A stretch of 64,000 nt of DNA. Origin: Puniceicoccales bacterium Verruco_01 (GTDB lineage Bacteria > Verrucomicrobiota > Verrucomicrobiia > Opitutales > Oceanipulchritudinaceae). Location of the stretch: contig LVBV01000015.1 of the NCBI GenBank assembly GCA_001604565.1, forward strand, positions 10,719 to 74,718. The letters run 5' to 3'. Positions 4,553-51,763 of this stretch are shown here, one piece after another (the first letter of the stretch is position 1; each line of letters starts with the position of its first letter). The notes under the pieces were generated by a model, which saw only the letters and a program-made list of their open reading frames with translations, searched no databases and had not been told where the DNA came from. The position numbers were made by a program, and so were the translations under genes.

Positions 4553-6946
4553 ATGCGTTACGGAACCTTCGACGACAAAGCACGTGAATACGTAATCGAC
4601 CGGCCGGACACCCCGCGCCCGTGGTCGAACTACATGGGATCCCGCCAGTACGGTGGAGTGATCACCAACCACGCGGGCGGCTACTCCTTCATCAAGAGCC
4701 CGGCCCAGGGCCGCATCACCCGCTTCCGTTACAATTCCATTCCCGCGGACCAGCCGGGACGCCAGTTCTACGTTCGCGACCAAGAGAGCGGCGACTTCTG
4801 GAGCGCCGCATGGCAACCGGTCGGCAAGCCGCTCGACCAGTACAAATCGAAGACGCGTTTCGGCACCAATTACACCGTCATCGACAGCGACTATTCCGGC
4901 ATCCACACCGAATCGACCTATTTCATCCCGATGGGTCAGATGTTCGAGTACTGGATCCTGAAGGTGCGCAACGATTCGAAGAAGGCCCGCAAACTCCGCG
5001 TCTTCACGTTCTGCGAGTTCACGGCGGAGTTCAACATGTTGAACGACCTGCTCAACCTCCAGTACACGATGCACATCATCCGCGCCAACTACGCGGACAA
5101 CATGATCGCGGTGTATGCCAACGGCAACCTCCCGGTCAAGACCCTCGACGTTGCCAAGTGGGACGTTTCCCGTCCGTGGTGGATCGGCATGGCGCAGAGC
5201 CCCGTCACCGGCTACGACTGCGACCGCGACGTCTTCATCGGCGAGTACAACAGCTTCCACAATCCCGCCGCCGTCCAGCGCGGCGAGTGCTTCAATAGCT
5301 ACGCCTTCTCGGACAACGCCTGCGGCTCGCTGCAGACGGATATCACCCTCCAGCCCGGCCAGGAGAAGGAAATCATCGTCATCCTCGGCGCCGGCGAGGC
5401 GAAGAACGAGGGCAAGGCCATCCTCGCGGAATACGGCACCTCCGAGCGCGCCGCGAAGGAGCTCCAGGCCCTCAAGGACTTCTGGCACAGCCGCATGGAT
5501 GTCATCAAGGTCAAGACGCCCGACGAGGCGCTCGACCACATGGTGAACGTGTGGAACAGCTACAACTCGCTCATCACCTTCGAGTGGTGCCGCGCGGTCT
5601 CGCTCATCTACACGGGCGACTCGCGCGACGGTTTCGGCTACCGCGACGCCGTGCAGGACTGCATGGGTGCGGCCTGCATGATTCCGGACCTCGTCAAGGA
5701 ACGCCTCGTCATCATGCTTTCCGCGCAGGAGAGTAACGGCGGCGCCCAGCCCGAGGTGAAGCCTTGGGAACTCAAGCCGGGTCACATGAAGAAGACCCGC
5801 GACGACGAGTACCGCAGCGACGACTGCCAGTGGCTCTTCGAGACGATTCCCGTCTATGTGAAGGAGACCGGCGACGTCGGCTTCTACAACGAGGTCATCC
5901 CCTACGCCGACTGCGGCGAGGCGACGGTGTTCGGCCACCTGCGCCGCGCGCTCGACTTCAATCTGGAACGCAAGGGAAAGCACGGTCTTCCCTGCGGCCT
6001 GAAGGCCGACTGGAACGACTGCCTGAAATTAGGTTATCACGGCGAGAGCGTGTTCGTCACCTTCCAGGTGCGCCGCGGCCTCATCCGTTATGCGGAGATC
6101 GCGAACCTCCTCGGAAAACCCGCGGAGGCGGACTGGGCCAACATCCAGCTCAAGGAGCTCGACAAGGCCATTCAGGCGATCTGCTGGGACGGCGAATGGT
6201 TCATCTGGGCCATCGGCGAGGACGGCACGGTCTATGGCACGAAGAACTTCCCGGAAGGGCAGGTGTACGTGAACACGCAGGCGTGGGCCATCATGAGCGG
6301 CGCCGCCACCCCCGAGCAGACGAAGGTAACGCTCGACACGATGGACAAGCGCCTCTTCACGAAATTCGGCCTGAAACTGTGCGATCCGCACATCCAGACC
6401 ATGAAGTGCGAGGTCATGCGCGCAATGCTCTTCAACGCGGGCAACAAGGAAAACGGCGGCATCTTCTCGCACCCGCAGAGCTGGGGCGTCCTCGCCGCTG
6501 TGGCCGCGGGCGACGGCGACAGGGCTTACAAGTACTACGACGCCTTCATGCCCTCCGCGCAGAACGACATCGCCGACCACCGCGTCGTCGAACCCTTCGT
6601 GCACTGCCAGTCGAGCCACGCGGACAGCTCCCCCAAGTTCGGCACGAGCCGCGTGCCGTGGCTTTCCGGCACGGCCTCCTGGGCGAACTTCACCGCGCAG
6701 CAGGGCATCCTGGGCCTGATTCCGGAGCTGGACGGCTTCCGCATCGACCCCTGCATCCCGCACAACTGGCCGGGCTTCTCCGCCGAGCGCAAGTTCCGGG
6801 GAAAACTCCTCAAGATCGAGGTGAAGAACAAGAGCGGCGTCTGCAAGGGCGTGAAGAAGGTGACTGTCAACGGCAAGGCGATCAAGGGCAACCTCGTCCC
6901 GCTTTCCGCCATGACGGAAACGACCGACATCGTCGTCGAGATGTAG
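4553..6946 (+). CDS. GH94 family phosphorylase (cellobiose/chitobiose phosphorylase-like)
   Basis: From 'MRYGTFDDKAREYVIDRPDTPRPWSNYMG' onward it is colinear by eye with cellobiose phosphorylase ('RFRYNSIPAD', 'GLKADWNDCL', 'ENGGIFSHP'). The first 15 codons of ORF 4508 are probably not translated. Confidence 0.9.
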   Translation: MRYGTFDDKAREYVIDRPDTPRPWSNYMGSRQYGGVITNHAGGYSFIKSPAQGRITRFRYNSIPADQPGRQFYVRDQESGDFWSAAWQPVGKPLDQYKSKTRFGTNYTVIDSDYSGIHTESTYFIPMGQMFEYWILKVRNDSKKARKLRVFTFCEFTAEFNMLNDLLNLQYTMHIIRANYADNMIAVYANGNLPVKTLDVAKWDVSRPWWIGMAQSPVTGYDCDRDVFIGEYNSFHNPAAVQRGECFNSYAFSDNACGSLQTDITLQPGQEKEIIVILGAGEAKNEGKAILAEYGTSERAAKELQALKDFWHSRMDVIKVKTPDEALDHMVNVWNSYNSLITFEWCRAVSLIYTGDSRDGFGYRDAVQDCMGAACMIPDLVKERLVIMLSAQESNGGAQPEVKPWELKPGHMKKTRDDEYRSDDCQWLFETIPVYVKETGDVGFYNEVIPYADCGEATVFGHLRRALDFNLERKGKHGLPCGLKADWNDCLKLGYHGESVFVTFQVRRGLIRYAEIANLLGKPAEADWANIQLKELDKAIQAICWDGEWFIWAIGEDGTVYGTKNFPEGQVYVNTQAWAIMSGAATPEQTKVTLDTMDKRLFTKFGLKLCDPHIQTMKCEVMRAMLFNAGNKENGGIFSHPQSWGVLAAVAAGDGDRAYKYYDAFMPSAQNDIADHRVVEPFVHCQSSHADSSPKFGTSRVPWLSGTASWANFTAQQGILGLIPELDGFRIDPCIPHNWPGFSAERKFRGKLLKIEVKNKSGVCKGVKKVTVNGKAIKGNLVPLSAMTETTDIVVEM

Positions 6947-6967
6947 CGGCAGTCCGAAGTGTCTTTC

Positions 6968-7002
6968 AAGGCCGCCGTCCTCCGTGACGGCGGCCTTTTT
7001 TT
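6968..7002 (+). terminator. rho-independent terminator after the GH94 gene
   Basis: 12-bp perfect stem 'aaggccgccgtc'/'gacggcggcctt', 6-nt loop, followed by a T-run. Confidence 0.8.
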
Positions 7003-7038
7003 GCGAGCGGAAATCAGCCCTGTGGCGGAAAACCGCCG

Positions 7039-7581
7039 TTACTTGCCGCCCGCGTCCGTCCCCTTGGCGGAGAGCGCCGCGCTCTTCTTGCTGAAGGCCT
7101 CCGCGTCCGCTAAAAAGCCCTCCAGCACCATCTCGTAGGGTGGCATCCTGCAACTGATCTTGAGGCTGCTGCCGTACATCCCGTCCTCCACAAGCACGCG
7201 CAGATCGACAGGCGCGTAGCGGGCGGACGAGTCGCTCCGTTCTAGGAGCTTGCGGCGCATGCCGGCCATGCGGACGATGGAGGCCGTCACGTTTTCGGTG
7301 TAGCCGGGCGCCTCCAGTCCCGCCGTGAGCATTACCTGCCGTACGACCGTTGTGAAGTAAAAGTATTCCGACACGCAGAGATCGCGCCCCTTTTTCCGGA
7401 GGGCGTCGAGCAGCGCGGGGCTGTCCAGAATCTGGGCGCGGAGTGTTTCGCTGGCGAGGGCGGCGTTGAATTCTTCGACGCTTAGCAGATCCCGCCCGAG
7501 GGTTTCGTGGATGAAGGCCATGTCATCCTGGGTGAGAAGACCGATCTCGTCGCGATAGGCCTCATCGTGGATTTCTTCCAT
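7039..7581 (-). CDS. hypothetical protein
   Basis: 180-aa ORF with normal composition in its own intergenic slot downstream of the cydB terminator. No family recognised. Confidence 0.5.
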   Translation of the reverse strand: MEEIHDEAYRDEIGLLTQDDMAFIHETLGRDLLSVEEFNAALASETLRAQILDSPALLDALRKKGRDLCVSEYFYFTTVVRQVMLTAGLEAPGYTENVTASIVRMAGMRRKLLERSDSSARYAPVDLRVLVEDGMYGSSLKISCRMPPYEMVLEGFLADAEAFSKKSAALSAKGTDAGGK

Positions 7582-7704
7582 GCAAGGACAAGTCGGAGGG
7601 GCTTCGTCTCACTTGAAGAGAAAAGACCCGCAGGAAACTTTTTCGAGATTTCGTTTAAGTTTGGCGGCGCTCTGCTACGCAAATTCATGCGGAATAACGG
7701 GCGG

Positions 7705-7739
7705 AAAAAGGCCCGCGCGGGGTTGCCGGGCGGGCCTTT
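7705..7739 (-). terminator. rho-independent terminator after cydB
   Basis: On the minus strand: 'aaaggcccgc'-loop-'gcgggccttt' followed by a T-run, about 22 nt after the cydB stop. Confidence 0.7.
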
Positions 7740-7760
7740 GAAAACAACTTTGGCAGCCTG

Positions 7761-8777
7761 TTAGTAGCTCGTGGAGGAGAGCTTCACCTTGCCGCGGAAG
7801 ATCCAGTAGATGGAGATCGTGTAGGCGAGGACCATCGGCATGCCGATGAGAGCGATGACGAGCATGATGAAGAGCGTCTTCTCCGAAGAGGCGGCGTTGG
7901 CGGTTGTCAGGCTCTGCGCCACATCCGGATTGGAGAGGACCAGATACGGGAACATCCCTCCCGCAAAGAGCGCCATCATCAGGGCGATCGTGCCCATCGA
8001 GGCGAGAAACGCCCGGCGGTCGCGCTTCTTCGAGATCTCGCGCGGGATGTCCGCCATCGTGAGGATGGAAAGTAGCGCCAGAACCCAGAGCCAGGGCCTC
8101 TCGCGCAGGGCCTCGCCGATGTGCGGGACGAAGAGGACGCTCGCGAAGGTCAGGGCCACGTAGCACACGATGAAGGCGAGCATCGCGGGCTTCACCCAGC
8201 GGCGCACCTCGTCGTGAACCGCGCCCTCGGTCTTCATGAGGAGGTAAATCGCCCCGTGCATCGCAAAGAGCGCGACGGTCGTCACACCCATGAGGAGCGC
8301 GTAGGGATTGAGGAGACTGAAGAACGTCCCCGCGTAGTTGTGGCTGGAATCGAGCGGGATCCCCATCACCATGTTGCCGAGGGCCACGCCGAAGAGCAGC
8401 GGCGCCACCATGCTCGCGAGGGAAAAGCTCCAGTCCCAGAAGCTGCGCCACCACGGCATCGGTTGCTTGCTGCGCATCTCGATCGCCACGGCGCGGAAGA
8501 TGAGGGCGAAAAGAAGGAGGATGAGGGCGAGGTAGAAGCCCGAGAACACGGTGGCATACACCTCGGGAAAGGCCGCGAAGAGCGCGCCGCCGCCGGTCAC
8601 AAGCCACACCTCGTTCCCGTCCCACACCGGGCCGATGGAGTTGAGGGAAATGCGCCGCGCCGTGTCCCCCTTGTGCAGAAGGTGCAGCGTGCCGACTCCG
8701 AGGTCGAAGCCGTCGAGAATGGCGTATCCCGCGAGGAGAACGCCGATGAGGAAATACCAGATGGTGGCGAGGTCCAT
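7761..8777 (-). CDS. cydB: cytochrome bd ubiquinol oxidase subunit II
   Basis: 338-aa polytopic protein 'MDLATIWYFLIGVLLAGYAILDGFDLGVG...WDGNEVWL', the hallmark CydB N-terminus. It directly follows cydA. Confidence 0.9.
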   Translation of the reverse strand: MDLATIWYFLIGVLLAGYAILDGFDLGVGTLHLLHKGDTARRISLNSIGPVWDGNEVWLVTGGGALFAAFPEVYATVFSGFYLALILLLFALIFRAVAIEMRSKQPMPWWRSFWDWSFSLASMVAPLLFGVALGNMVMGIPLDSSHNYAGTFFSLLNPYALLMGVTTVALFAMHGAIYLLMKTEGAVHDEVRRWVKPAMLAFIVCYVALTFASVLFVPHIGEALRERPWLWVLALLSILTMADIPREISKKRDRRAFLASMGTIALMMALFAGGMFPYLVLSNPDVAQSLTTANAASSEKTLFIMLVIALIGMPMVLAYTISIYWIFRGKVKLSSTSY

Positions 8778-8778
8778 G

Positions 8779-10179
8779 TTACTTGCCCTCCTTCGGCTGC
8801 GGTTTGCGATTCAGCATCATGGCGTCGAAGCCCTTGCGGAAGGTCTCGTATTCCTCGCTGTGAACGTCCTCCGGGCCGTGCTGGATCTTGTGGTTGAGCA
8901 TGTAGATAAAGACGAAGAATAGAAGGAGATAGACGAGGGTGAAGAGGAGGAGCGAGGCAAGGACGCTTCCCGCGCTCACCACGGTGCTCAGGCCCTCGTT
9001 CGTCCTCATGAGGCCCCAGACGATCCAGGGCTGACGCCCGACCTCCGCCGTCATCCAGCCGATCTGGTTGGCGATCTGCGGCAGAAGCACCGCGACGACA
9101 AGCACCCACAGGAAGGGACGCCAGTTCCAGAGCCAGCCGCGCGACCAGCCGATCATGCCCACAATTGCTATCGCGATGAGCGCCATGCCGATCGAGATCA
9201 TGAGGTGATAGCCCTGAAAAGTGAGGTTCGCGGGCGGTCGGTCCTCCTTCGGGAAGGCGTCGAGGCCCTTGATGGGCGTCGTCGTGTCGCCGCTCACAAG
9301 CCAGCTCAGCATCCCGGGGATGGCGAGGCCGTGGGTCTTGCCCGCCGTTTCGTCAACCCAGCCGAAGATGTACATCGCCGCCGGGGCGTGGGCGTCGAAG
9401 TGGCCCTCCATCGCGGCCAATTTGGTAGGCTGGTGCTCGGCCACCAGTTCCGCGCTGCGGGAGCCCGTGTACAGGGAAAGGAGCGAGGCGGCCAGCGCCA
9501 CCGAAAGGCCCACCTTGATCGAGCTCTTTGCAAAGGCCTCGTCCCGCTTCTTGAGGAGGTACCACGCGCCGACGCTGATCAATAAGAACGCGCCCGCCGA
9601 CCATGCGCCGACGAGGGTGTGACTCAGGCGGTCGAGGCTGGAGGGGTTGAAGACCACGGCCCAGAAGTTGGTGATTTCGGCCCTCGGTCCGTTCGGGCCG
9701 TCCACGATGTGGAAGCCCGCGGGCGTCTGCATCCACGAGTTCGCCACGATGATCCACAGGGCGCTGAAGTGCGCGCCCAGACACACCATGAGCGTCGCAA
9801 ACCAGTGCGTCCCGGGCCGGACTCTCCGCCAGCCGAAAAGGACGATGGCAAGGAAGCCGGATTCCAGGAAGAAGGCGAAAATTCCCTCCGCGGCGAGGGC
9901 GCTCCCGAAGACATCGCCCACATACCGGGAGTAACGCTCCCAGTTCGTGCCGAATTCAAACTCAAGCACGATGCCGCTCGCCACGCCGATGGCGAAGGTG
10001 AGGCCGAAGATCTTGCCCCAGAATCGAGTCATCGCGCGGTAGTGTTCGTTCTTCGTTTTGAGCCACATCGTCTCCATCACGACAAGGCACAGGCCAAGCC
10101 CGATGGAAAGCGGAGGATACAGATAGTGGAAGGCCGCCGTGAGTGCGAATTGCAGGCGGGAGAGGAGTGCTGCGTCCAT
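8779..10179 (-). CDS. cydA: cytochrome bd ubiquinol oxidase subunit I
   Basis: 'LSRLQFALTAAFHYLYPPLSIG', 'GWMTAEVGRQPW' (Q-loop/C-terminal signature). 466 aa. Confidence 0.95.
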   Translation of the reverse strand: MDAALLSRLQFALTAAFHYLYPPLSIGLGLCLVVMETMWLKTKNEHYRAMTRFWGKIFGLTFAIGVASGIVLEFEFGTNWERYSRYVGDVFGSALAAEGIFAFFLESGFLAIVLFGWRRVRPGTHWFATLMVCLGAHFSALWIIVANSWMQTPAGFHIVDGPNGPRAEITNFWAVVFNPSSLDRLSHTLVGAWSAGAFLLISVGAWYLLKKRDEAFAKSSIKVGLSVALAASLLSLYTGSRSAELVAEHQPTKLAAMEGHFDAHAPAAMYIFGWVDETAGKTHGLAIPGMLSWLVSGDTTTPIKGLDAFPKEDRPPANLTFQGYHLMISIGMALIAIAIVGMIGWSRGWLWNWRPFLWVLVVAVLLPQIANQIGWMTAEVGRQPWIVWGLMRTNEGLSTVVSAGSVLASLLLFTLVYLLLFFVFIYMLNHKIQHGPEDVHSEEYETFRKGFDAMMLNRKPQPKEGK

Positions 10180-47315: not shown

Positions 47316-48308
47316 CTAGACGCCCTGCCGCGCGATCTCGCCCGCGAAGTAGGATAGGATGATGTCCGCGCCCGCGCGCTTGATCGCAAGGAGGGACTCG
47401 TCGCGCGTTCTTTCGCGGTCGAGCCAGCCCATTTGTGCGGCGGCCACGATCTGCGAGTATTCGCCGGAAACCTGATACGCCGCAACAGGCAGGTTCGTCG
47501 CCGTGCGGGTTTGCCGGAGGATGTCCAGGTACGGCCCGGCGGGCTTCACCATCACGATGTCCGCGCCCTCGGCCTCGTCGAGGGCCACTTCGCGTGCGGC
47601 GGCGCGGGCGTTGGCGGGATCGAGCTGATACGTGTCCTTGTTGAGGAGCGTCGTCCCGGCGGCGGAGGCGCTCCCCACCGCGTCGCGGAAAGGGCCGTAG
47701 TACGCGCTGGAAAACTTGGCGCTGTAGGCGAGGAGGCCCGTCCCCTCATACCCCGTCGCGTCGAGGGCGGCCCGGATCGCACCGATGCGCCCGTCCATCA
47801 TGTCGCTCGGCGCGACGAAATCGACGCCCGCCTCGGCATGCAGGAGGGCCATCTTACAGAGGATTTCCACCGTGGCGTCGTTGTCCACGTCGGAGCCGTC
47901 CTCCGTAAGAACCCCGTCGTGCCCGTGGCTCGTGTAAGGGTCCAGCGCGATATCCGTAAAGAGCAGCAATTTCGGCACGGCGGCCTTTACGGCGCGGACG
48001 GCGCGCAGAATGAGGGTCTTCTTGCTCAGGGCCTCGGTCCCGCGCGGGTCCTTGAGCCGCGCGTCGAGCTTGGGGAAGAGCGCCACGCCACGGATGCCCG
48101 CCTCGTACAATTCGCGACATTCGGCCACGAGCTGGGAAATCGTCAGGCGCCGCTGACCGGGCATGGAGGCGATTTCCTCAGCCGGGCCGCTGCCGTCGAT
48201 GACAAAGAGCGGCTGGACGAGGTCCTGCGGCGTGACGCTGTTCTCGCGGACAAGATCGCGGATTTCGGCGGATTTGCGGAGCCTTCTCGGGCGGATCGGA
48301 AGATTCAT
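47316..48308 (-). CDS. hemB: porphobilinogen synthase
   Basis: 'RPRRLRKSAEIRDLVRE', 'DIALDPYTSHGHDGV', 'MVKPAGPYLDI' (Schiff-base Lys) and 'YQVSGEY'. Confidence 0.95.
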   Translation of the reverse strand: MNLPIRPRRLRKSAEIRDLVRENSVTPQDLVQPLFVIDGSGPAEEIASMPGQRRLTISQLVAECRELYEAGIRGVALFPKLDARLKDPRGTEALSKKTLILRAVRAVKAAVPKLLLFTDIALDPYTSHGHDGVLTEDGSDVDNDATVEILCKMALLHAEAGVDFVAPSDMMDGRIGAIRAALDATGYEGTGLLAYSAKFSSAYYGPFRDAVGSASAAGTTLLNKDTYQLDPANARAAAREVALDEAEGADIVMVKPAGPYLDILRQTRTATNLPVAAYQVSGEYSQIVAAAQMGWLDRERTRDESLLAIKRAGADIILSYFAGEIARQGV

Positions 48309-48373: not shown

Positions 48374-49252
48374 CTACGCCTCCTTCGCAGCCTTGGGGGC
48401 CGATTCGTCCGTTTTCCCCGCCGCTTCGGCAAGGCGTGCCTTCGCCACAGCCACATACTCGGCGTCGATGTCGTAGCCCGTGAAGCTGCGGACGCCTTCA
48501 AAGTAGGCCGCGAGGGCGGAGGAGCCGATGCCGAGGAAGGGGTCCATCACGCGCGTTTGGGCGTTTGCCCCGGCGATCTTCAGGCAGTTGCGCGCGAGCT
48601 CCACCGGGAAGGTGGCGGGATGGGGGCGGTCCGTCGAGCGGCGCTGGATCGTCTCGTAGGGGACGAACCAGACGTTCCCCCGGCAGCGTTTGTCCCGCCC
48701 GCCCGTGTGCCCCCAGCGCGCGATGTTGCTTTTATCCTGATAGGGCACACCGAGTGCGAGGCGTTCCAGCGGCACGTTGCCGGTCTTGGTCAGGTGGAAG
48801 ACGTATTCGTGGCAGTCGTTCACAAACCGCTTCGAGTTGATCGGCTTGAAGTGGCCGACCGAGACGAAGTCGCCGTCTTCTCCCTTCGGGTCCGGCACGC
48901 TGATCGACTTCACCCAGTGGAACGTGTTCTGTAGCTTCCACCCGCACTCGCAGGCAAGGAGCGCCATCTGGTGCGGGAACAAGGGTTCCTTCGGCGAGGC
49001 GCCCACATTGAGGAAGAACGAGCCGCCATCGGAAAGCACCCGCAGGATTTCCGTCATCCACACCCGGCACCACGTCAGATACTCCGCGCGGGAAGAAGTG
49101 TCGTCATAAGTTAAATAGTGAATTCCAAGGTTATAAGGAGGTGAAGTGACGACAATGTCTTTGCTCCCGCCGGGCATCCGACGCATGCCTGAAACGCAGT
49201 CACAGCATTCTAGCCAAAAACGAAGATCTTCATCGCGTTTTGTTTCGCCCAT
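48374..49252 (-). CDS. beta-class site-specific DNA methyltransferase (N4-cytosine or N6-adenine)
   Basis: Motif IV 'VVTSPPYN' lies near the N-terminus and motif I 'VMDPFLGIGSS' near the C-terminus (circularly permuted beta order). 'HPATFPVELA' is also present. The 5' ~170 nt use AT-ending codons. Confidence 0.9.
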   Translation of the reverse strand: MGETKRDEDLRFWLECCDCVSGMRRMPGGSKDIVVTSPPYNLGIHYLTYDDTSSRAEYLTWCRVWMTEILRVLSDGGSFFLNVGASPKEPLFPHQMALLACECGWKLQNTFHWVKSISVPDPKGEDGDFVSVGHFKPINSKRFVNDCHEYVFHLTKTGNVPLERLALGVPYQDKSNIARWGHTGGRDKRCRGNVWFVPYETIQRRSTDRPHPATFPVELARNCLKIAGANAQTRVMDPFLGIGSSALAAYFEGVRSFTGYDIDAEYVAVAKARLAEAAGKTDESAPKAAKEA

Positions 49253-49254
49253 GA

Positions 49255-49308
49255 TTGTACAATGGGCACTTTTATAAAAAGTACAAGCAGAAATTGAAAA
49301 ATGTACAT
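49255..49308. promoter_or_regulatory. cluster of GTAC-centred palindromes (TTGTACAA ... GTACAA ... ATGTACAT) in the spacer upstream of the methyltransferase
   Basis: Perfect 8-nt palindromes at 49255-49262 and 49301-49308, plus 'agtacaag' at 49280-49287, in a 74-bp AT-rich spacer. Any role is inferred. Confidence 0.25.
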
Positions 49309-49326
49309 CAAATATATAAGTGACTA

Positions 49327-49584
49327 TTATCTACCGAGTTCAGGTCCGAGGGACCGCTGGAAAATTGTCAATAATCTTGTCTGAAATCCACCGTTTCCCA
49401 TATCAAAAGCATATCGAGGAATTTTTTCCAATTCTTCGTCGGAGAGAGTTATTTTCCCTGTGTTTTTGTCACATATTTCCTGCAGATGAATAATGAAACC
49501 CTGCCATCCCCCTCGACTACGGGTGTCGGGATTCTGTTCGAAAAGCGTGGCTACTTCATTCGGATTTAGAATTAACGTTCTCAT
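49327..49584 (-). CDS. small hypothetical protein (85 aa) upstream of and co-oriented with the methyltransferase
   Basis: 'MRTLILNPNEVATLFEQNPDTRSRGGWQGFIIHLQ...IPRYAFDMGNGGFQTRLLTIFQRSLGPELGR' has two GG[WF]Q motifs. AT-rich codons. I believe similar small ORFs sit beside orphan methylases elsewhere, but I cannot name a family. An alternative start is at 49620. Confidence 0.55.
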   Translation of the reverse strand: MRTLILNPNEVATLFEQNPDTRSRGGWQGFIIHLQEICDKNTGKITLSDEELEKIPRYAFDMGNGGFQTRLLTIFQRSLGPELGR

Positions 49585-49630
49585 TGAACGAAGGAAAACG
49601 TTTCCACATTTACGTAGCAACGCGAAACCG

Positions 49631-50782
49631 TTACTCCACCTCCAGAATCGCGCCCTTGAGGTATTCGGTCTCGGGGATGCCGAGGATCGCGGGATGGTCC
49701 TTGGGCTGGGTCGATAGTTCCACTAGGCGCACGCGGCGGCCCGCGTCGAGCGCGGCGGCGGTGAGGACTTCCTGATACATCTCGCGCGTGACGCTCTTGG
49801 AGCAGGAGTAGGTGGCGAGGATGCCGCCGGGGGAAAGCATTCGCATGGCGCGCAGGTTCAGCTCCTTGTAGCCGCGCAGGGCTCCGGGGACGGACGCCTT
49901 GTTGCGCGCGAAGCTCGGGGGGTCCAGCACGATGAGGTCGAAGATTTCCTCGCGCTTTTCCGTGAAGTAATCGAAGAGGTTTTCCGCGAGGAATTCGGCG
50001 GCGAGGCCGTTTTTCTGGGCATTCGCTCGCGCCTGCGCGACGGCCAGGGCGCTCGAATCAATGCCGAGGACGCTCGCCGCGCCCGCCTTCGCGCACTGGA
50101 GGCCGAAGGCGCCCTGATTGCAGAAACCGTCGAGGACGCGGCGACCTTTTGCAAATTCCGCCACGCGCCGGTGCTGGGCGCGCTGGTCGAGGTAGAATCC
50201 CGTCTTCTGCCCGCCCGCGAGGTCGAGGTAGTAGGCGACTCCGTCGATCTCCTGCCAGAAGGGGGTGAGCGGGGTGCCGGAAAGGGTTTCGACGACGCTT
50301 TCGAGGCCCTCGTACCGGCGGCCCGGCGCGTCGTTCCGGAAGAGGACCTCGCGCGCGTTCGTCGCCGTTTTCAGAATTTGGGCGATTTCCGCCGCGTGCT
50401 TCTCCATGCCGAGGGTGAGGGTTTGCAGCACCACCACGTCCCCGTACTGGTCCGCCACAAGGCCGGGGAGTTCGTCCGCCTCGCTCCAGACGAGGCGTCG
50501 GACGGCCTCCGAGTCTCGCCGGGCGAGGGCTTTCGCGATCGCCTCCTTGAGGAAGGTCGCATCGAACTCGGCCTCGTCCCTTGCATAGCGGCGCCAGACG
50601 ATGCTGCTCTTGCCGTTGTAGAGGCCGCTCCCGAGGAGCCGCCCGCGCGCGTCGCGGAGAATCACGCCCGTCCCGTCCGCCTCTTGCGGCAGCGGTTTTG
50701 CGATTTCTCCCGCAAAAACCCAAGGGTGGCCGTTCAGGGCCCGGCAGTTGCGCGCGTCACGGGAAAGAGATAATTCCAGCAT
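49631..50782 (-). CDS. rlmI: class I SAM-dependent 23S rRNA (cytosine-C5) methyltransferase, RlmI-like (PUA plus MTase)
   Basis: 'GHPWVFAGEI', 'LPGLVADQYGDVVVLQ', 'QKTGFYLDQR', 'VLDGFCNQGAFG', 'DLIVLDPPSFA'. 383 aa. Confidence 0.85.
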   Translation of the reverse strand: MLELSLSRDARNCRALNGHPWVFAGEIAKPLPQEADGTGVILRDARGRLLGSGLYNGKSSIVWRRYARDEAEFDATFLKEAIAKALARRDSEAVRRLVWSEADELPGLVADQYGDVVVLQTLTLGMEKHAAEIAQILKTATNAREVLFRNDAPGRRYEGLESVVETLSGTPLTPFWQEIDGVAYYLDLAGGQKTGFYLDQRAQHRRVAEFAKGRRVLDGFCNQGAFGLQCAKAGAASVLGIDSSALAVAQARANAQKNGLAAEFLAENLFDYFTEKREEIFDLIVLDPPSFARNKASVPGALRGYKELNLRAMRMLSPGGILATYSCSKSVTREMYQEVLTAAALDAGRRVRLVELSTQPKDHPAILGIPETEYLKGAILEVE

Positions 50783-50901: not shown

Positions 50902-51627
50902 TTACTTCTTCAGGAGCTTGTCGTTGATTGTCTCCGCGGAGATCGCCTTCGTGCAGAAGAACCAGTCGTGGCAGACGATGCCCTCGCTCCTGTCGGCCAT
51001 GCGGTCCTTGGCGAGGCCGCAGGAACCCGGCGGCGGCACGATGACGGGGTCGCCCGGGCGCCAGTCGGCGGGCGTCGCGCAGCTGAAGGCGTCCGCCGTC
51101 TGCATCGCGATGAGCGCGCGGTAGAGTTCGTCGAAGTTGCGGCCCGTGGAAAGCGGGTAATACACCATCGCGCGGATGATGCCCTTGGGGTCGATGAAGA
51201 ACACGGCGCGGACGGCCTTGGTGGAACTCTCGCCCGGCTGGATCATGCCGTATTTCTTCGCGACGGACATCGTGATGTCCTCGATGAGCGGGAACTTGAC
51301 CTCCACGTCCTTCATGCCGCGGTACTCGATCTTTTCCCTGATCGTGCGCAGCCACGCGATGTGCGAGAAGAGGCCGTCCACCGAGAGGCCCACGAGCTTG
51401 CAGTTGGCCTTGGCGAACTTCCCCTCCAGCGAGGCGAAGGTCATGAATTCGGAAGTGCAGACGGGCGTGAAGTCCGCCGGGTGGCTGAAGAGGATGACCC
51501 AGCTTCCGGCATATTGCTCGGGGAATTTGATTTCGCCCTGCGTCGTCACGGCGGTGAAGGAGGGAGCCTTGTCGCCGATGCGGGGCATCGGGACGGTTTC
51601 ATTACAGTTGCATTCGCAGTTTTCCAT
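50902..51627 (-). CDS. peroxiredoxin (Prx6/1-Cys-like subfamily)
   Basis: 'WVILFSHPADFTPVCTSEF' (peroxidatic Cys), 'GLSVDGLFSHIAW', 'RAVFFIDPKGIIR'. Start is either 'MENCECNCNE...' (51627) or 'MPRIGDKAP' (51588). Confidence 0.9.
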   Translation of the reverse strand: MENCECNCNETVPMPRIGDKAPSFTAVTTQGEIKFPEQYAGSWVILFSHPADFTPVCTSEFMTFASLEGKFAKANCKLVGLSVDGLFSHIAWLRTIREKIEYRGMKDVEVKFPLIEDITMSVAKKYGMIQPGESSTKAVRAVFFIDPKGIIRAMVYYPLSTGRNFDELYRALIAMQTADAFSCATPADWRPGDPVIVPPPGSCGLAKDRMADRSEGIVCHDWFFCTKAISAETINDKLLKK

Positions 51628-51763
51628 GGTTTTGCGGGATTGTGGTTGAAAGGGAGGGGGAAATGAGGTCTCTCCCGTGAAATGTATCACGGTTTCCTTT
51701 CATGAGAGGGCCAAGCGTGAATTTTCATCCCTCAAAAATGCAAACATGCGGATAACGCGACGC

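Follow-up and report, generated by a model that had tools for sequence, protein, structure and literature searches.

A two-gene methyltransferase islet in a verrucomicrobial genome pairs an orphan modification enzyme with an unannotated GG[WF]Q-repeat protein

The window analysed here, a stretch of 64,000 nucleotides from Puniceicoccales bacterium Verruco_01 (contig LVBV01000015.1, positions 10,719 to 74,718 of the forward strand), carries an AT-rich islet of two genes between the housekeeping genes hemB and rlmI. One gene encodes a beta-class DNA methyltransferase, and the other a protein of 85 residues with two GG[WF]Q motifs. The islet is an accessory two-gene module, and its pairing of small protein and methyltransferase has been conserved as a unit across many phyla. 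The promoter region of the methyltransferase gene contains a cluster of WTGTAC sites, which the small protein is here proposed to bind as a candidate controller of an enzyme that has no nuclease beside it. The genome of the window (hereafter referred to as G000) is a 2.5-Mb assembly in 61 contigs, 94.7% complete, and the other genomes, contigs and loci are designated by the letters G, C and L.

An unannotated family of small repeat proteins

The original prediction, made from the DNA letters alone, had described the small protein as a possibly novel partner with two GG[WF]Q motifs and neither a helix-turn-helix nor a nuclease motif. Both GG[WF]Q motifs are present in the 85-residue protein, and its ATG start agrees with the homologues, whereas an alternative TTG start, giving 97 residues, does not. 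A word-indexed search with the single small protein returned no match; HMMER, run in full against 1.84 billion cluster representatives, identified 221 that match it at E ≤ 1e-3, and a profile search of 90% clusters added 68 further members, all labelled "hypothetical" and all without Pfam domains. The ratio of nonsynonymous to synonymous divergence is well below 1 (L051 against L057, dN 0.13 with dS saturated; L040 against L041, 0.19 against 0.88).

No match to the small protein was found in Pfam, NCBIfam, PHROGs or PADLOC, in the Protein Data Bank (PDB) by sequence, in the PDB or BFVD by Foldseek, or in 50,697 phage and 72,556 plasmid records. Even at E ≤ 10, a Pfam search over 56 members gave no relation, no helix-turn-helix and no effector-associated domain (EAD) model, and Pfam and NCBIfam gave no helix-turn-helix family for the query or these 56 relatives, and no nuclease family for the query. 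Judged by these searches, the family of the small protein is real and unannotated, and has no described relatives. The idea of a novel partner is thereby upheld, with members of the family adjoining methyltransferases recurrently. The possibility that the small protein is a degenerate RsaI nuclease was considered separately, and was ruled out (hhalign probability 0.1%).

An AlphaFold model of the small protein (pLDDT 92.4) places strands at residues 2–5 and 44–47, and helices at residues 8–14, 27–37, 49–61 and 66–79. The two halves align to each other (hhalign 91% probability, E 1e-6), from which the protein is, as modelled, a tandem duplication of a unit made of a beta-strand, a helix, a GG[WF]Q loop and a second helix. 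When compared to an ad hoc RHH_1 profile, representing the ribbon-helix-helix repressors, both halves match weakly and in register, the second half at 34.5% (E 4e-4) and the first at 4.9%.

Recurrent pairing with amino-methyltransferases

The free form of the protein was examined in 39 loci (the window, G001, which is of the same genus, G134, eight metagenome contigs, and 28 genomes from at least eight phyla). A PF01555 methyltransferase lies within about two genes in 15 of the 39, in tandem, convergent or divergent orientation. These partner enzymes are of three types, namely the beta type of the window and two types of about 400 residues in which motif I precedes SPP(Y/F), the latter being 22–29% identical to each other and to the window enzyme. 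No phage relatives that would hint at a specificity were found for these other types. In other Verrucomicrobia, the small-protein/methyltransferase pair adjoins thiG. About half of the free-protein loci have no methyltransferase nearby, and the other recurrent neighbours are ThiG, integrases, transposases, P63C, Bro-N, DUF3800, an AAA_15/21 ATPase (PADLOC HEC-04) and unknown proteins. A hidden nuclease among these neighbours was considered, and was ruled out.

In five alphaproteobacterial loci (L047, L048, L052, L064, L065), the small gene adjoins a gene for a protein of about 200 residues, with LFSG, DINP and DPPYS motifs (in the order I then IV) and no Pfam hit. This family is possibly a minimal adenine methyltransferase, but it is methyltransferase-like by motif only, and these neighbours were therefore set apart and counted separately.

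Two further arrangements were observed around the free gene. In L040 (5295–5573) and L041 (5292–5573), an open reading frame of 92–93 residues with two CxxC pairs, which is zinc-ribbon-like, lies between the small gene and the gene for a 402-residue methyltransferase. L033, on contig C22 of G134, has a 3-kb AT-rich island (6600–9500, G+C 0.37–0.45 against a background of 0.62), in which the small GG[WF]Q gene is followed by genes for a 317-residue protein and a 187-residue membrane protein, both without a family match.

Fusions of the domain and TIR-ParA operons

The GG[WF]Q domain also occurs at the C-terminal end of larger proteins. It ends KGGVGR-type ParA ATPases that possess a class-3-cyclase-like middle region, cyclase-like proteins of about 230–315 residues, FGE-sulfatase proteins (one with a SAV_2336 N-terminal domain), a protein with two receiver domains, a SecB-like protein, and membrane proteins. 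Four ParA-cyclase fusion loci were looked up (L102, L103, L104 and L105), and in all four a TIR gene is followed by the ParA-cyclase-GG[WF]Q gene and then by a convergent PF01555 methyltransferase gene, the product of which is 58–61% identical to the window enzyme. L103 and L105 have in addition a free small open reading frame directly upstream of the methyltransferase gene, which is the cassette of the window, and L102 and L104 have the fused copy only. The unit, of three or four genes, sits among housekeeping genes.

TIR-ParA systems have been described, and proposed to be immune, in a preprint of October 2026 (bioRxiv 10.64898/2026.10.19.760177); their C-terminal sensor modules vary, and a ParA-associated cyclase is among the parts described. 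A methyltransferase is nowhere mentioned in the text of the preprint, and the GG[WF]Q domain was not found in the sections consulted. The unit of L102–L105 looks like a methylation-linked branch of these systems. The KGGVGR motif gave no match in the literature searched, which also appears to contain no description of a link that joins the GG[WF]Q domain to amino-methyltransferases and TIR-ParA operons.

The KGGVGR ParA model (NF047398) has no match over its cut-off in G000, G001 or G134. Because G000 possesses no such ParA, the window holds only what is elsewhere the modification arm of TIR-ParA loci. It had been suggested at the outset that the cassette might be half of a larger system, and the same pair does abut TIR-ParA operons in other bacteria.

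The C-terminal position of the domain in proteins as varied as the KGGVGR ParA, FGE-sulfatase/SAV_2336, cyclase-like and SecB-like ones would also be expected of a homotypic protein-protein adaptor, similar to the EADs. In such a case, the free protein would pair with or antagonise the ParA-cyclase tails, it could act as an anti-defence decoy in mobile elements, and it would be an orphan in G000. That L103 and L105 each carry the domain in both fused and free form is consistent with this, as are the phage or mobile contexts of several free-protein loci and the pseudo-dimeric repeat, which suits oligomerisation. However, none of the 56 members matches an EAD model, the family is missing from the phage and plasmid records searched, and G000, G001 and G134 have no KGGVGR ATPase over the cut-off that could be the partner. 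An adaptor would also leave unexplained the tight link to unrelated methyltransferase types and to clusters of GTAC (see below). I therefore consider it unlikely.

Another explanation starts from the strict adjacency to methyltransferases, which holds for the free and fused forms alike. The small protein may bind the methyltransferase itself, either as a modulator of its activity or specificity, or as an adaptor by which the TIR-ParA sensor guards the methyltransferase against phage inhibitors. There is a precedent in kind, as a type I restriction-modification enzyme restrains the anticodon nuclease PrrC. Nonetheless, the partner enzymes are of at least three unrelated or permuted architectures, which are hard to fit to one binding surface, and a beta-class enzyme carries its own target-recognition region. 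With about half of the free-protein loci having no methyltransferase nearby, I find direct binding of the enzyme quite unlikely.

The methyltransferase and its probable target

The methyltransferase of the window is an ordinary PF01555 member (129.2 bits against a cut-off of 26.7, E 2.9e-37, over residues 32–271), and the PADLOC model MTase_II matches it at 3e-82. The sequence TSPPYN is found at residues 36–41, with the catalytic SPPY at residues 37–40 (positions 49133–49144 of the window), and motif I, FLGIG, at residues 239–243. The order is that of motif IV followed by motif I, and the enzyme is of the beta class, as had been read from its sequence originally.

The closest solved relatives of this enzyme are 8s9m and 8s9n, named DNA cytosine-N4 methyltransferase (E 5e-16), and CcrM, M.RsrI and M.MboIIA also match it, behind these two. 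Because of the SPPY motif and of these best solved relatives, the enzyme probably makes N4-methylcytosine (m4C), and not methyladenine. Among the 50,697 phage records, its relatives are confined to 11 cyanophages, at 44–49% identity. In one of these, Synechococcus phage ACG-2014j, the homologue (44% identity) is overlapped by an upstream gene of 167 residues labelled "R.RsaI endonuclease". The product of M.RsaI is GTA(m4C) (PMC3287169, PMC6256690). It is possible that the window enzyme is RsaI-like, with GTAC as its target; this is proposed because of the homologue linked to R.RsaI, and because genomes that generally avoid GTAC keep it in these promoters.

No R.RsaI-like gene was found in G000, at its 94.7% completeness, or in 40 relatives, and no nuclease lies beside the cassette, the flanks of which are hemB and rlmI. 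The methyltransferase is an orphan, with no cognate endonuclease to make it part of a type II restriction-modification system. This is in agreement with the original prediction, which had seen no nuclease in the islet.

A separate observation concerns restriction sites in G000 as a whole. The palindromes CTCGAG, CGGCCG and GTCGAC are nearly absent from the genome (observed/expected 0.03–0.09), which suggests past or present restriction pressure of the XhoI, EagI and SalI types.

Clusters of GTAC sites in the methyltransferase promoters

The 74-bp spacer between the two genes contains three sites, reading on the coding strand ATGTACAT (49301–49308), CTTGTACT (49280–49287) and TTGTACAA (49255–49262). 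The spacer of G001 has the same three-site arrangement, and a spacing of 15 + 22 bp between three sites recurs in G001, L064 and L065, that is, in Verrucomicrobia and Acetobacteraceae. Two to four sites are found in the methyltransferase promoter or in the divergent spacer of L040, L041, L043, L047, L051, L057, L061, L064 and L065. In five loci, 13 sites were read; every one of them has TGTAC on one of its strands, and 12 have WTGTAC. Within 250-bp windows at 21 methyltransferase starts, 38 GTACs were counted, against 7.7 expected from the density of the loci (P about 6e-15) and 18.9 expected from the local composition, and 11 of the 21 windows hold at least two. Only two GTACs occur in the 8.2 kb of L051, both in the spacer, and the sole GTAC of L058 is at the methyltransferase start. 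No GTAC cluster accompanies the window-type methyltransferases that lack the small gene (those of G015, G022, L102 and L104, and a second copy in G000 on contig C23, described below).

The observed-to-expected ratio of GTAC in G000 is 0.68. Depletion of GTAC was considered as a signature of the family and ruled out, since relatives without the small protein are equally depleted; it is a background property of these phyla. In a further genome, G017 (84% complete), the small gene was not found, and its locus L025 has a single CTTGTACTTTT about 15 bp upstream of the methyltransferase gene; the same word occurs in the spacers of the window, L043 and L051.

The sites could also have a simpler origin. 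If the small open reading frame were a hitch-hiker beside a lone, phage-derived methyltransferase, the GTAC clusters would be promoter elements or a by-product of AT-rich sequence. TTGTAC does resemble a -35 box, and TACAAT or TACATT a -10 box, and the spacing between TTGTAC and TACAWT is 16–17 bp in L040, L041 and L043. In addition, the zero-order expectation in AT-rich regions is the higher one given above, of 18.9 sites, and GTAC depletion is general in these phyla. In the window, however, TACAAT ends 2 nucleotides before the start codon, at a spacing of 21 bp, so that the pair cannot be a promoter. A strict sigma-70 scan of the spacer found no promoter on the coding strand. The presence of TGTAC on one strand in 13/13 sites and the recurrence of the 15 + 22 bp spacing in two bacterial groups also argue against this origin, as does the pairing of the small gene with methyltransferases across phyla and enzyme types. 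I therefore regard the hitch-hiker explanation as very unlikely.

A proposed self-limiting circuit

The explanation that I favour, tentatively and at somewhat less than even odds, is that of an orphan modification arm in which the small protein is a DNA-binding controller or reader, and the enzyme plausibly a GTAC m4C methyltransferase. The small protein would bind the WTGTAC sites clustered in the methyltransferase promoter, which contain GTAC, the probable target of the enzyme. This binding would change once the methyltransferase encoded next to it had modified the GTAC within the sites. Promoter occupancy and expression of the methyltransferase would then depend on the methylation state, providing a self-limiting control that does not involve a nuclease. 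Where the GG[WF]Q module is fused, it may similarly make the ParA-cyclase/TIR pair responsive to whether DNA is methylated.

The small protein is proposed as the factor using the sites because it is the only component common to cassettes with unrelated methyltransferases, and because the clusters are missing where the small protein is missing. The fusion of a GG[WF]Q domain behind two receiver domains, and the weak in-register match of each half to the ribbon-helix-helix profile, were also counted in favour of a DNA-binding role.

Several observations weigh against this circuit. In the searches described above, no DNA-binding family or fold matched the small protein significantly, the ribbon-helix-helix probability being just 34%, and the strand residues that would be expected to read bases in a ribbon-helix-helix protein differ between G000 and G001 despite their having the same sites. 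In tandem cassettes the sites are located downstream of the small gene, unlike the upstream sites of a classical autoregulator. Loci of the small protein without a methyltransferase neighbour mostly have no WTGTAC sites, and the TIR-ParA loci that include the small gene (L103, L105) also have no clusters. The proposed GTAC specificity leans on a phage homologue of 44% identity with an unverified annotation, and one domain in two proteins of a single locus equally suits a protein-protein adaptor.

A bolder proposal, which I think rather unlikely, would make the GG[WF]Q repeat a novel fold for reading DNA, able to sense whether the target of the partner methyltransferase (probably GTAC) has received its amino-methyl group. 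The free form would gate the promoter of an orphan methyltransferase, and the form fused to a ParA-cyclase protein beside a TIR gene would be the non-self sensor of a system that resembles restriction-modification but has no nuclease. The methyltransferase would mark self DNA, and unmarked DNA of an invader would trigger the TIR effector, leading to abortive infection.

An accessory module with a recombined gene

The cassette is present in two of the four genomes of the genus (G000 and G001). In G001, rlmI is accompanied by the small open reading frame (85 residues, 49% identity), the methyltransferase gene (71% identity) and a convergent HAD gene. In G003, the HAD gene and recA come directly after rlmI, which is an empty site, and in G002 a GH16 gene takes the place of the cassette. 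The downstream neighbour is a HAD hydrolase gene in G001, G002 and G003, with recA next in G002 and G003; the HAD and recA genes of G000 are on other contigs, and only this genome has the junction to hemB. Of 401 genomes sampled across the phylum, 2 were found to encode the small protein. No flanking repeats or target-site duplications were found around the islet. The junction comparison thus bears out the prediction of a horizontally acquired cassette, in that the module is accessory and has an empty rlmI-HAD site in G003.

The methyltransferase had also been suspected to be a recombined gene. The second methyltransferase copy of G000 is located on contig C23, where it closes the early region of a Mu-like prophage, and the contig ends 200 bp beyond it. 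This early region (L021, 2564–7978) encodes transposition-B-like, Gam-like and possible GemA-like proteins, and then the methyltransferase paralogue. Positions 48438–49046 of the window differ from the C23 copy by 38 mismatches in 609 bp (6.2%), i.e. they are 94% identical, against a divergence of 40% in 49047–49252 and 55% in 48374–48437, and a model with three segments of divergence gains 85 log-likelihood units. The protein identity to the C23 copy is 67% for residues 11–70 and 97% for residues 71–277, and across the same spans the G001 orthologue is 62% and 75% identical. By this sequence comparison, the 609-bp tract is one of gene conversion or recombination between paralogues of one genome, and the suspicion is substantiated by a statistically clear tract common with the prophage paralogue. 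The GC-rich body of the methyltransferase gene reflects exchange with this same-genome paralogue, rather than simple amelioration. The direction of the exchange cannot be fixed, because the C23 prophage copy has a G+C content at third codon positions (GC3) of about 0.9 throughout, and the body of the G001 orthologue is also GC-rich.

A mosaic gene next to a hemB junction seen in this genome only could in principle be an assembly chimera, with the two paralogues joined within their conserved core. The assembly is a draft or metagenome-derived one, the prophage copy is close to a contig end, and exact runs of up to 82 bp are common to both copies. The 38 differences scattered along the tract, however, show that it is not the C23 copy, and the reading frame is unbroken. 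The order of rlmI, small gene and methyltransferase gene is also that of G001, which was assembled independently and has one copy only, with a similar gradient from low to high GC3. The scattered differences and the shared gene order make a chimera very unlikely.

Organization and composition of the locus

The coordinates of the islet and its flanks are listed in Table 1. The original prediction of a two-gene insert, on the same strand, between hemB and rlmI was confirmed in every coordinate.

Table 1. Features of the islet and its flanking genes, in positions of the window.
Feature	Positions	Strand	Basis or remark
hemB (porphobilinogen synthase)	47316–48308	minus	downstream flank; PF00490 at 6e-130
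Methyltransferase, 292 residues, beta-class SPPY type	48374–49252	minus	PF01555
Tract attributed to recombination or gene conversion, inside the methyltransferase gene	48438–49046	minus	common with the C23 prophage paralogue
AT-rich spacer and promoter region, 74 bp	49253–49326	minus	three WTGTAC sites
Small partner open reading frame, 85-residue GG[WF]Q tandem-repeat protein	49327–49584	minus	open reading frame list and homologues
Spacer between the rlmI stop and the small gene start, 46 bp	49585–49630	minus	left islet boundary
rlmI-type 23S rRNA m5C methyltransferase	49631–50782	minus	NF053718 and PF10672; flank conserved with G001

The 46-bp spacer at the boundary contains AAACGTTT and TACGTA palindromes. 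In 150-bp windows, the G+C content falls from about 0.65 to 0.36–0.45 across positions of about 49100–49620. The 400-bp window at 49180–49579 has a G+C content of 0.407, against a genome mean of 0.630 with a standard deviation of 0.043 (z = -5.1), which places it in the lowest 0.09% of genome windows, and it is one of 22 such regions in the assembly. The abrupt low-GC tract predicted at about 49095–49625 is therefore real. As also predicted, it covers only the small open reading frame (G+C 0.43, GC3 0.38), the spacer and the start of the methyltransferase gene, which is compositionally mosaic, with GC3 of 0.43–0.50 in codons 1–60 and of 0.80–0.97 thereafter; by this measure the low-GC part is the first 60 or so codons. 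A second, smaller dip in G+C (0.46) is found at 51600–51750, at the 5' end of a 262-residue open reading frame (50902–51690, minus strand).

Comparison with known systems

To my knowledge, orphan methyltransferases are common and their control is mostly unknown, and controller proteins are known only for systems that include a nuclease. The islet leads to a widespread, unannotated domain family without a fold match, tied to several amino-methyltransferase architectures and to TIR-ParA operons, and as such it is a fresh lead on the control or sensing of DNA methylation. If the domain does read methylation or the methyltransferase target, it would be a new class of epigenetic regulator, and would account for the way in which one branch of TIR-ParA immunity tells self from non-self.

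A functional parallel is that of the C proteins, such as C.PvuII and C.AhdI, which are helix-turn-helix dimers of the Xre type that normally gate a nuclease gene. Like the small GG[WF]Q gene, C-protein genes are small and located beside or upstream of the genes for modification or restriction, the intergenic promoter carries repeated, inverted sites that resemble operators, and feedback control of expression is proposed for both. Unlike the C proteins, the small protein has no helix-turn-helix and consists of a beta-alpha-alpha repeat without a structural match, and there is no nuclease in the cassette.

The ribbon-helix-helix repressors, including the tandem single-chain TraY, have a strand, a helix, a glycine-containing turn and a second helix, of the size seen in each half of the small protein. 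Its two halves could therefore mimic a ribbon-helix-helix dimer, and their alignment to RHH_1 is in register; the 12-residue loop in the first half, and the lack of a Pfam ribbon-helix-helix or fold match, set it apart. The sites themselves resemble the yefM-yoeB operator, in which paired short palindromes with a TGTACA core are located in the promoter. Such paired TGTACA-core palindromes, as in operators of the YefM/Phd type, are also found in the window spacer, although the cassette has no Phd/YefM domain and no toxin gene.

The M.RsaI/RsaI system includes, like the window, an amino-methyltransferase of the N6_N4 family with an SPPY-type motif. The two are further tied by the phage homologue (44% identity) overlapping an annotated R.RsaI, and by the GTAC clusters in the promoter of the window enzyme. 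The RsaI system has a nuclease, whereas no R.RsaI-like one was found in G000 or in 40 relatives.

Lastly, the TIR-ParA systems differ from the window in that G000 has neither TIR nor ParA. The loci L102–L105, in which the same type of methyltransferase is found, share with these systems (bioRxiv 10.64898/2026.10.19.760177) an upstream TIR gene followed by a KGGVGR-type ParA with a class-3 cyclase-like module.

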